44,346 bases of DNA. It comes from a virus. The notes under the pieces were generated by a model, which saw nothing but the letters and a program-made list of their open reading frames with translations, searched no databases and was not told the DNA's origin. Where the stretch lies: the IMG/VR virus record IMGVR_UViG_3300031087_000004, one strand, 5' to 3'. How positions within the stretch are numbered: the first letter of the stretch is position 1; each line of letters opens with the position of its first letter. The position numbers and the translations under genes were made by a program. Below, one piece after another: positions 39,952 through 41,533 of the stretch.

Positions 39952-40339
39952 ATTTACGAACGCTAAGTTGGCCAAAGAAATCGAACGTTTAAACCGTGAA
40001 GTAACCAGCCTTAAATCGGCGCTGTTGCTGGCTGCCGACAACAACAGCAAAGCCGAGCAGCTGGAAACGATGCTGGAAGGCGCAGCCGCCGAAAACGCCC
40101 ACCTGCTGGCACGCCTTCACCAGCTGGGCGATCCGAACATGTGCGATCTGGTAGTTGAGCTAATGGCGCTGAAAGTGACCGGCAAACTATGCGCCCGCTT
40201 ACAGGCCCGAGGGTACCGTGAAGCAGTTGCCGATGTTCGCGCCGTGGCACGCACCGCCCGCAACCCGCAGATTTACGACCTGATGATGGATATTTGCGGC
40301 CAGATGGATGCCAAAGCCGCACGGGTGGAGGCGCTTTAA
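39938..40339 (+). CDS. Hypothetical coiled-coil protein
   Basis: GGAGGG lies 8 nt before ATG 39938. 133 aa, with heptad-like LAKEIERLNREVTSLKSALLLAA. Confidence 0.55.
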   Translation: MITNKFTNAKLAKEIERLNREVTSLKSALLLAADNNSKAEQLETMLEGAAAENAHLLARLHQLGDPNMCDLVVELMALKVTGKLCARLQARGYREAVADVRAVARTARNPQIYDLMMDICGQMDAKAARVEAL

Positions 40340-41463
40340 TGGCGGCCTATTACAACGAGTTCAACAAGGACGCAGCCGCCTGGCTGCGTGTTCTCATTCA
40401 GGAAGGGCTGATCGCCCACGGATATGTCGATGAAAGATCAATCGAAGAAGTTACCCCCGGCGACCTGCGAGGCTTCACCCAGTGCCATTTCTTCGCGGGC
40501 ATCGGCGGCTGGAGTCTCGCATTGCGAATCGCCGGAGTTGCTGACAATACACCGTGCTGGACAGGATCACCCCCCTGCCAGCCTTTCAGCGTCGCAGGAT
40601 TGCAACTTGGAATGCACGACGCAAGACACCTTGCCCCAGTCTGGCTGCGGCTTATTGACCAGTGCCAGCCTTCAAAGATCTTTGGAGAGCAGGTTAAAGC
40701 GGCAATTAAGCCCGGATGGCTTGATCTTTTATTCGGCGAAATGGAAAGAGCGGGCTACGCCTGCGGGGCGTCAGTATTGCCAGCTGGCGCTAGTGAAGCG
40801 CCCCACCTGCGCGACAGATTATTTTTCGGGGCAGTGCGAAACGTGGCCCACACCGATAGCGAACGACGCGAAGGGCAGCGACTACAGCACCAGCAACGGG
40901 GAGAAGATATTGAAGTTGCCGGGAGTGGCGAAGCTGGCAGCATGGACGACGCCCAGCCATTCGGACGGGACGCGGGGCGGCACCGGGATAACGGAGAACA
41001 TGACGGGCAGCAGCCTGGTGCAGCAGGCCAAACTGGCGAGCTGGCCGACGAGCAGCGCGACGGATCACAAGGGTGGCTACGAGGGTGGCAGGATTCGCAA
41101 CGGCAAACTTTCGGTGGACAGGCTGGACGTGGCCGCGCAGCTGGCGACCTGGCCAACGCCTTTGACCGTTCCCGAATCGGACGCCAGCAGGGGCCAACTG
41201 TCTGGCAGCATGAGGCAACAGCTGGAGCCGTGCAAGCCGTCAATCCGTGGGCAAGTCTTAAACGCCAATGGGATCGATGTGACTGGATCTTATGCCTCGA
41301 TGGCAACTACCGGCCCATTGAACCCGGCACTTTCCCGCTGGCTAATGGGGTACCCGCCCGAGTGGGACGATTGCGCGGTTATGGCAATGCCATCAGCCCG
41401 CAAATCACGTCAGAATTTATCGAAGCCTTTAACGGAGCCTGCAACGATGCGCGCCGCGCCTAA
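40339..41463 (+). CDS. dcm: DNA (cytosine-5) methyltransferase, frame-1 reading (374 aa)
   Basis: TAATG overlap with the upstream gene. Motif I FFAGIGGW, motif IV GSPPCQPFS, motif VI-like IFGEQV, motif VIII PHLRDRLFF, motif X RLRGYGNAISPQITSEFIEA. The middle third is G/R/Q/D-rich and uses many rare codons. Confidence 0.7.
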   Translation: MAAYYNEFNKDAAAWLRVLIQEGLIAHGYVDERSIEEVTPGDLRGFTQCHFFAGIGGWSLALRIAGVADNTPCWTGSPPCQPFSVAGLQLGMHDARHLAPVWLRLIDQCQPSKIFGEQVKAAIKPGWLDLLFGEMERAGYACGASVLPAGASEAPHLRDRLFFGAVRNVAHTDSERREGQRLQHQQRGEDIEVAGSGEAGSMDDAQPFGRDAGRHRDNGEHDGQQPGAAGQTGELADEQRDGSQGWLRGWQDSQRQTFGGQAGRGRAAGDLANAFDRSRIGRQQGPTVWQHEATAGAVQAVNPWASLKRQWDRCDWILCLDGNYRPIEPGTFPLANGVPARVGRLRGYGNAISPQITSEFIEAFNGACNDARRA

Positions 41464-41533
41464 AGTGCGCATCCGGGCGGGATCCTTTGAGCACGACGGC
41501 TGGCTGGCGCTGGCCGCGCAAAAGAGGAAGTGA
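40424..41533 (+). other. Overlapping frame-2 ORF (369 aa) whose middle and C-terminal parts carry methyltransferase target-recognition-like repeats
   Basis: ETWPTPIANDAKG, AAWTTPSHSDGTRGG, ASWPTSSATDHKGG and ATWPTPLTVPESD repeats, then [19 protein letters not shown]. Good codon usage over 40840-41370. The stop at 41531-33 abuts the next gene's SD and ATG. Confidence 0.5.

Follow-up and report, generated by a model that had tools for sequence, protein, structure and literature searches.

The 44,346-nucleotide (nt) viral DNA of IMG/VR record IMGVR_UViG_3300031087_000004, referred to here as the window, contains two real overlapping genes on the same strand at positions 40339–41533, the products of which most likely cooperate as one cytosine-5 (C5) DNA methyltransferase, a reading to which we assign a probability of roughly 0.6. 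The open reading frame (ORF) in frame 1 (F1; 40339–41463) encodes a 374-residue protein with a C5 methyltransferase core, and the ORF in the +1 frame (F2; 40424–41533) encodes a 369-residue protein with WPTP-type repeats; both, like all features of the window described below unless stated otherwise, lie on the plus strand. F2 starts 85 nt later than F1 and ends 70 nt further downstream, and the two frames are open together for 1,049 nt, further than any other pair of same-strand frames in the window, whichever strand is considered. The runner-up, also on the plus strand, spans 480 nt (3112–3687 and 3164–3646), such that the locus is indeed the outlier described in an earlier note made from the sequence alone, although the limit of about 130 codons given there for other alternative-frame ORFs was slightly too low. 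The ATG of F1 overlaps the stop codon of the upstream gene (TAATG). At the other end, as the same note had pointed out, it is the F2 stop (41531–41533) that adjoins the following gene, 2 nt ahead of its ATG at 41536, with the F1 stop located 72 nt earlier. Between 40838 and 41270 the third-position G+C content is 0.81 in F2 versus 0.57 in F1, which bears out the suggestion that F2 is the coding-like frame in the middle of the locus.

Both F1 and F2 are under purifying selection, and the distribution of constraint differs from region to region. For this analysis 72 non-identical loci were aligned as nucleotides, and substitutions in pairs that are at least 80% identical were counted by their effect in both frames, using OLGenie logic implemented in our own script; they are expressed as dNN/dSN for F1 and dNN/dNS for F2 (N, nonsynonymous; S, synonymous). 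In the region ahead of the F2 ATG, the ratio is 0.04 for F1 and 1.17 (interval 0.51–3.7) for F2, whereas in the middle (WPTP) region it is 1.08 (0.92–1.26) for F1 and 0.49 (0.42–0.57) for F2; the two ratios near 1 thus constitute internal negative controls, one in each direction. Where the N-domain of F1 is overlapped by F2, the ratios are 0.12 for F1 and 0.51 (0.36–0.70) for F2, and in the second half of this overlap, which encodes motifs VI–VIII of F1, they are 0.13 and 0.39 (0.24–0.65). The N-terminal 75 residues of F2 give a dNN/dNS of 0.69 (0.49–0.91) in close pairs and approximately 0.9–1.0 in distant pairs. In the 3' region both ratios are 0.54, in agreement with the proposal that this end encodes conserved peptides in both frames. 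Column conservation follows a similar course: F1 scores 0.7–0.9 in the N-domain, F2 equals F1 (0.60–0.67) at 40654–40788, F2 exceeds F1 in the middle, where the F1 linker drops to 0.21–0.37, and both frames reach 0.6–0.77 at the 3' end. Approximately 40 codons at the 3' end are therefore conserved in both frames simultaneously, which a single shift point cannot explain. The obligatory +1 shift with a return to frame 1, as envisaged in the earlier note, is not supported by these data, since both frames are open and constrained far past any junction, while its notion of overprinted genes is upheld, with selection on both frames extending across a very large family.

The pattern of stop codons leads to the same picture. 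Within the middle region, none of 2,539 F2 codons that precede an AA/AG/GA codon ends in T, compared with 17.8% elsewhere, and the stop-making F2 codon pairs that are avoided in this way correspond to about six F1 stops per locus. Conversely, synonymous shuffling of the F1 codons predicts about two F2 stops per locus in the N-domain, and in the third frame the observed number of stops equals the expected number. When the window itself was shuffled, F2 stayed open over the N region in 1.3% of cases and F1 over the middle and C-terminal regions in 0 of 300. Because the regions were defined as open, the zero stop counts arise partly by construction, and the weight of the stop-avoidance evidence lies in the expected stop numbers and in the unbiased survey of loci described next. 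The linker of F1 is neutral in its amino acid sequence and selected just for being free of stops.

To avoid bias, no query other than the F1 catalytic domain was used to retrieve a set of 80 viral loci. In almost every one, the +1 frame stays open across approximately 80–90% of the F1 ORF, compared with approximately 15–20% for the +2 frame, and the end of F2 usually falls between −65 and +76 nt from the F1 stop, confirming that both frames are open in homologous phages. Classification by motif pattern was applied to 86 sequences, made up of these 80, five loci fetched in addition and the window: 71 displayed the arrangement of the window, one was a single-chain variant and 14 were left undecided. 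The double frame is found in phages K1ind3 and K1ind2, where a 309-residue 'C-specific methylase' and a 265-residue 'Mte8-like protein' have both been annotated since 2010, as well as in Bas80, in an E. coli prophage and in an integrative element from a bacterium, which shares only 36% identity with the window in its F2 product. The arrangement recurs in independent isolates and metagenomes at 35–90% identity, and the assembly indels considered in the earlier note are refuted, since K1ind3, Bas80, the integrative element and some 70 other viral loci share the double frame. No close relative of the whole window phage was found in the phage collection. Homologues of F2 number more than 1,573, the homologue P0120 measures 627 residues, and an F2 profile matched 26,166 clusters at 50% identity in a library of 1.84 billion proteins, 8,359 of them at E ≤ 1e-30. 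Searches with tblastn revealed F2-type translations beneath 'DNA cytosine methyltransferase' genes in replicons of Salmonella, Klebsiella, Citrobacter, Ralstonia, Rhodoplanes, Marinobacter and Arsenophonus, for which the NCBI annotation names F1 only, as 'DNA cytosine methyltransferase'. In the literature, 'Mte8' was encountered as an annotation label only, a search for 'WPTP' returned irrelevant papers only, and no description of this two-frame family was found among work on overlapping or alternative-frame phage methyltransferase genes.

The F1 protein harbours motif I (FFAGIGGW, 40489–40512), motif IV (GSPPCQPFS, 40564–40590), motif VI (IFGEQV, 40678–40695) and motif VIII (PHLRDRLFF, 40801–40827), all of which had been listed in the earlier note, which also gave the coordinates of the two ORFs correctly. 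These motifs lie within a catalytic (large) domain comprising residues 1–167 (40339–40839). Pfam recognizes this protein as PF00145 at residues 75–187 only (E = 4.7e-16), a hidden Markov model/profile alignment pairs motifs I and IV–VIII with residues 3–32 and 70–170 of M.HhaI, and PHROGs assigns the full length to phrog_363, a family labelled 'DNA methyltransferase' (E = 2e-71). An identical protein is present in a public collection (P0121). In an AlphaFold2 model built from a 90-sequence alignment, the predicted local distance difference test (pLDDT) score is mostly 80–96 for residues 1–167, 26–46 for residues 181–350 and approximately 76–81 for a C-terminal helix at 354–373. With Foldseek, the model matches M.HaeIII, M.HhaI and DNMT2 with a probability of 1.0 (E of approximately 1e-6 to 1e-5) over some 170–195 columns, which cover the large domain of the C5 methyltransferase only.

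Following the catalytic domain, F1 encodes a linker of unconstrained sequence (residues 168–303, 40840–41247) and then a conserved C-terminal segment (41248–41460) with the pattern W..DW..C.DG..RP.EPG.FPLA.G.P.RVG.LRGYGNAI.PQ, succeeded by the helix; the segment includes YGNAISPQ (41380–41403), and alignment A2 shows columns within it that are invariant or nearly so. The GNAISPQ sequence together with the helix resembles motif X by eye, with the Pfam and PDB profiles being silent. We consider the middle of F1 to be a linker rather than a recognition domain because of its dNN/dSN of 1.08 and its predicted disorder, observations that also speak against the idea of two alternative enzymes with different recognition domains encoded by one DNA segment. 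Indeed, F1 has no constrained target-recognition domain or motif IX between motif VIII and the motif-X-like segment, and the constrained sequence at this location is that of F2; since no region of F1 is constrained between motif VIII and the C-terminal segment, F1 alone lacks a recognition domain.

The N-terminus of F1 may be unusual in its own right. Residues 1–36 (YYNEFNKDAAAWLRVLI...GYVDERSI, 40339–40450) are confidently modelled as a strand-helix-strand ahead of motif I that has the look of motifs II/III, and the strand-helix of YYNEF.K.AAAWL resembles, by eye, a motif II placed ahead of motif I. Motifs II and III appear to be absent between motifs I and IV because F1, when aligned with M.HhaI, passes directly from residue 32 of that enzyme to residue 70. 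Together, the strand-helix-strand and this jump suggest that the putative motif order is II-III-I-IV, which would be unusual for a C5 methyltransferase. We also note large insertions in the F1 proteins of three relatives (L032, 603–2045; L076, 2501–4219; L016, 2498–3493), which comprise up to approximately 200 residues and separate the DGK.RPVE...DG.P segment from RV.RLRGYGNAIVPQ, just past the end of F2.

The F2 product has a different organization. Its N-terminal 75 residues, encoded over F1 motifs I–IV (40424–40648), are predicted to be disordered and are weakly constrained, and are followed over F1 motifs VI–VIII by a predicted helix and β-hairpin (SLQRSLESRLKRQL...GLIFYSAKWKERATPAGRQYCQLA, 40667–40801), by four WPTP-type modules (40844–40942, 40943–41041, 41042–41149 and 41150–41233) and by a conserved C-terminal segment (...TGS.A.M..., 41273–41374), which is motif-IX-like and uses the same bases as DGNYRPIEPGTFPLANGVPARVGRL of F1. 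PHROGs places F2 in phrog_1008 (E = 1e-32), a family that is likewise labelled 'DNA methyltransferase' and is different from that of F1. No match was obtained for F2 in Pfam or NCBIfam, nor among PDB sequences, where both the single sequence and an 83-sequence profile failed to give a hit even at E = 10. In the structure model built from the 83-sequence alignment, residues 1–75 score below 50, as for a disordered region, the helix (77–94) and the hairpin (103–125) reach 85–95 and the modules lie at 60–89. Residues Leu91, Gly99 and Trp107 are invariant in the helix-hairpin region, as are Gly297, Leu299, Pro301, Trp306, Gly309 and Trp314 towards the C-terminus in alignment A1. By eye, the LNP..WLMGYP..W end resembles motif IX, on which the Pfam and PDB profiles are again silent.

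The WPTP modules fall into discrete types, as defined by strict clustering thresholds, loose thresholds lumping nearly all of them into one cluster. Of 291 proteins, 112 contain the type ATDHKGGY.GGRIRNGKLS.DRLDVAAQLA and 49 contain SHSDGTRGGTGITENMTGSSL. Proteins contain 0–10 modules, mostly 1–5, and the order of types varies between phages: the window has 9,1,0,25 and the relative P0001 has 1,9,18,0,25, and types 0 and 1 follow one another as 0,1 in 17 proteins and as 1,0 in 15.

Signals for an independent start of F2 are enriched across the family. In most loci the F2 ATG is located 61–115 nt past the F1 start, and the mean predicted Shine-Dalgarno pairing is −4.9 kcal/mol for the first F2 ATG, compared with −2.7 kcal/mol for background positions of the N-domain and −5.6 kcal/mol for F1 starts (Mann-Whitney p = 1.5e-11, uncorrected for the relatedness of the loci). 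In addition, the Asp codon that creates the F2 ATG is GAT in 51 of 67 loci, compared with 45% GAT for other Asp codons. The window offers two candidate ATGs, at 40424 and 40430, of which the latter occupies the family-conserved position, on the F1 codons GAT-GAA of VDERS. At its other end, F2 extends past the F1 stop with a tail of its own (KVRIRAGSFEHDGWLALAAQKRK and the F2 stop, 41462–41533), which also holds the Shine-Dalgarno sequence of the next gene. This tail is conserved in L006, L088, L089 and L090 with a pN/pS (nonsynonymous to synonymous polymorphism) of approximately 0.1–0.4, one pair giving 0.8, over 20 codons, and has a third-position G+C content in F2 of 0.86. Elsewhere, F2 is fused in frame to Dam (P0072, E = 4e-53), to endonuclease VII (L016) or to a DUF2800/PD-(D/E)XK domain (L018), and P0054 carries an HNH insert within F2. 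Such fusions to Dam or nucleases could in principle have joined neighbouring genes via loss of a stop codon.

Relatives in which the two frames are merged connect the catalytic domain directly with the F2 modules. When a composite of the F1 N-domain and the F2 middle and end was used as query, many natural proteins matched over about 90% of its length, such as P0258, P0274 and P0278 of Klebsiella and P0243 of Enterobacter. These single-chain proteins consist of the N-domain, WPTP modules and an L(N/D)P..SRWLMGFP..W end, without GNAI, and inspection of the DNA of their loci reveals the same gene with its frames switched. Since single-chain fusions exist, the catalytic domain and the F2 modules most likely form one functional unit. 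The switch point in Klebsiella P2-like prophages is a G tract, namely G10 in K. pneumoniae L086 (3044–3053) and G7 in L091 and L092 (approximately 1144–1150), which is positioned exactly where the catalytic-domain frame meets the WPTP frame. Around the tract all three frames are open, and both the upstream part of F2 and the downstream frame for linker plus GNAI are still open, such that a −1 slip, or one extra G, would restore both two-chain products. The Klebsiella tract may serve phase variation or programmed slippage, and it is only in these three loci that a slippage-type arrangement was found.

By contrast with these tracts, the switch in Enterobacter L087 is a single-base loss that lies outside any long tract. 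In L088, a relative found in four sequencing runs, a change from C5 to C4 after ...RHLA (approximately 1795–1800) joins F1 residues 1–100 to F2 and thereby parts motif IV from motifs VI–VIII, which means either that the gene has been inactivated or that the homopolymer was misread. The scatter of these junctions makes mutation or phase switching likelier than one conserved recoding site. We also note that no member of the family encodes contiguous motifs IX and X, because the motif-IX-like and GNAI segments sit in different frames in every arrangement.

On this basis we suggest that F1 would provide the catalytic large domain, a stop-free linker of about 140 residues whose sequence would be a by-product of F2, and then a motif-X-like segment and helix that would complete the large domain. 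F2 would be translated from its own ATG (40424 or 40430) as a separate polypeptide, consisting of a disordered N-terminus, the helix and β-hairpin, four interchangeable WPTP..D.KGG modules and the motif-IX-like end (LNP..), and would supply the small target-recognition domain that is absent from F1. We infer that the two proteins bind each other and that F2 sets the target sequence or sequences, with the module array yielding several specificities. Programmed frameshifting is not needed for the window locus.

Several observations weigh against this proposal. Translation of F2 and formation of an F1–F2 complex are both predictions from sequence, and the two ATGs of the window have weak Shine-Dalgarno-like pairing (−2.6 and −3.3 kcal/mol). 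The F2 model is of low confidence (mean pLDDT of 59) and has no fold match, Foldseek returning noise only. Pfam and profile searches of PDB sequences recognize a motif IX or X at the end of neither F2 nor F1, and when Pfam was run on the single-chain relatives, on an F1-F2-F1 composite and on both C-terminal segments, motifs IV–VIII alone were found and IX and X were not matched. In the single-chain relatives, the GNAI segment is missing from the main frame, which means either that this segment is dispensable or that those genes use slippage. With respect to the selection analysis, the alignment of the middle region was guided by the F2 protein and could favour F2, and the significance of the shuffle, Fisher and Mann-Whitney tests is overstated because the loci are phylogenetically related.

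An alternative that we regard as unlikely is that a +1 frameshift or slippage near the end of motif VIII, at the T5/G4 sequence (approximately 40822–40831), fuses the F1 catalytic domain to the F2 modules and produces a single-chain enzyme, with or without the full-length F1 product. Single-chain proteins of the same make-up are common among relatives, and the G7/G10 tracts of the three Klebsiella prophage loci illustrate how such a switch might operate. In the window, however, T5/G4 is present but short, 40339–41533 contains no long homopolymer or short tandem repeat of the kind associated with phase-variable methyltransferases, and no recognizable slippery heptamer is seen at either F1/F2 junction. 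Moreover, such a shift needs neither an F2 that is open and constrained over 400 nt upstream and has an ATG and a Shine-Dalgarno-like sequence of its own, nor an open F1 for 600 nt downstream, and the differing positions of the natural fusion junctions fit mutation rather than one conserved recoding site. A double frameshift from frame 1 to frame 2 and back would generate one chain comprising motifs I–VIII, the modules, IX and X, and it is true that the canonical motif order is obtained only by alternating between the frames. Yet the composite has GN just about 10 residues past G(F/Y)P, no slippery sequence is present at 41365–41384, two frames that are open throughout would not be needed, and no single return point fits, because both frames are conserved over the last 40 codons or so at the 3' end. 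This simultaneous conservation of the 3' region is why we have rejected the model, which appears highly improbable.

Rather unlikely as well, in our view, is that F2, a genuine gene overprinted on that of the methyltransferase, has no more in common with it than the DNA, and that its product has a role of its own, such as DNA binding or anti-defence. This would account for the lack of a detectable sequence or fold match between F2 and any part of a methyltransferase, for the fusion of F2 to nucleases or Dam in some phages and for the helix-hairpin, which has no counterpart in canonical enzymes. It would, however, leave F1, unconstrained between motif VIII and its C-terminal segment, without a recognition domain of its own, and it sits poorly with the natural in-frame fusions of catalytic domain and F2 modules in many genomes, and with the motif-IX-like F2 end and an arrangement that parallels M.EcoHK31I (PMC2836561). 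Finally, the double frame could be an artefact of assembly indels, or a chance long alternative-frame ORF in G+C-rich DNA, as the region is indeed G+C-rich and antisense frames are open for 140–180 codons too. The reproduction of the arrangement in independent isolates and metagenomes, the closed +2 frame and the restriction of stop avoidance to F1 and F2 reduce this to a practically negligible probability, and assembly error and chance are rejected on the comparative data.

The two-chain enzyme proposed here has a precedent in M.EcoHK31I of E. coli (recognizing YGGCCR), which consists of α and β chains that are both needed, with β encoded wholly in another frame of the α gene (PMC2836561, PMC3404938, citing Lee, Kam and Shaw 1995). 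In that enzyme, α contains motifs I–VIII as well as X, plus the assigned recognition domain, β contains motif IX and the N-terminal part of β mediates association with α (PMC2836561, PMC3404938). The likeness to the window, with a second chain in another frame of the methyltransferase gene, is one of arrangement. Furthermore, F2 of the window is nearly as long as F1 (369 versus 374 residues), the overlap is almost complete at approximately 350 codons, the second frame carries a variable WPTP array opposite an unconstrained F1 linker, and the recognition domain, which is assigned to α in M.EcoHK31I, would reside in F2. In M.AquI, which is split in the variable region, α bears motifs I–VIII and β motifs IX–X, encoded by largely consecutive genes (PMC3404938); both are thus two-chain C5 enzymes, but the window appears to keep motif X with the catalytic chain and its genes overlap almost fully. 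Engineered split or circularly permuted versions of M.MpeI, M.SssI and M.HhaI yield fragments that complement each other, with the C-terminal helix kept with the large domain (PMC5944983, PMC3404938). In these proteins the recognition part is separate, as we propose for the window, but they are artificial constructs expressed from separate genes.

A different parallel is offered by the C5 methyltransferases of Bacillus phages of the SPβ, phi3T and rho11s type, which are multispecific because recognition modules that can be interchanged lie in tandem between their motifs VIII and IX. There the modules are part of one chain and one frame, and the WPTP types of the window family are likewise discrete and shuffled; by analogy, the WPTP modules may be specificity determinants. 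An out-of-frame HNH gene inside an actinophage methylase gene (ShiLan type) also leaves the host frame open as a tolerated loop (PMC11855218), but is a mobile selfish endonuclease insertion, whereas F2 is a family-wide frame that spans the whole gene. The principle is therefore known from M.EcoHK31I, and what differs here is the near-complete overlap, the module array in the second frame, the neutral open frame opposite to it and the very large family.

Three further observations concern the surroundings and the annotation of the locus. Two genes upstream, the window encodes a Dam-type N6-adenine methyltransferase (39216–39815; PF05869, E = 3.6e-15, with a CNPPF motif), such that the phage has both an adenine and a cytosine methyltransferase, in a gene order that matches relatives L088 and L089. 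On the minus strand opposite the WPTP region (40755–41306), two antisense frames stay open over 183 and 142 codons, probably because the composition there is rich in G+C and poor in stops. The E. coli Ec1117 locus L093 (693–1862, NZ_CP126602.1) contains an intact two-frame gene (F1 of 400 and F2 of 334 residues) that RefSeq splits into two 'incomplete' DNA cytosine methyltransferase pseudogene fragments, the annotation pipeline probably being misled by the unconstrained linker.

The existence of long same-strand overlapping genes in prokaryotic viruses is still debated, and the locus provides a strongly supported comparative case of such an overlap, over approximately 350 codons and with clean internal controls. 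We tentatively raise the possibility, doubtful as it may be, that among the same-strand dual-coding genes known from phages and bacteria this one is the longest and the most widespread, with some 1 kb of DNA having served two proteins over a long span of evolution, with a shufflable recognition array that makes the enzyme multispecific and rapidly re-programmable, and with frame-switch variants that toggle between one- and two-chain forms. The family also exposes an annotation gap, as F2 is unnamed in the 26,166 metagenome gene-caller clusters and intact genes are sometimes split into 'partial' pseudogenes, and the F1 linker illustrates that a protein segment can be under selection for the absence of stop codons alone. 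If F2 sets target specificity by interchangeable modules, the pair would represent a natural two-part scaffold for engineered, targeted cytosine methylation, a use that has been explored with M.EcoHK31I (PMC2836561), and the modules would explain how phages and prophages of this family escape from many restriction systems.

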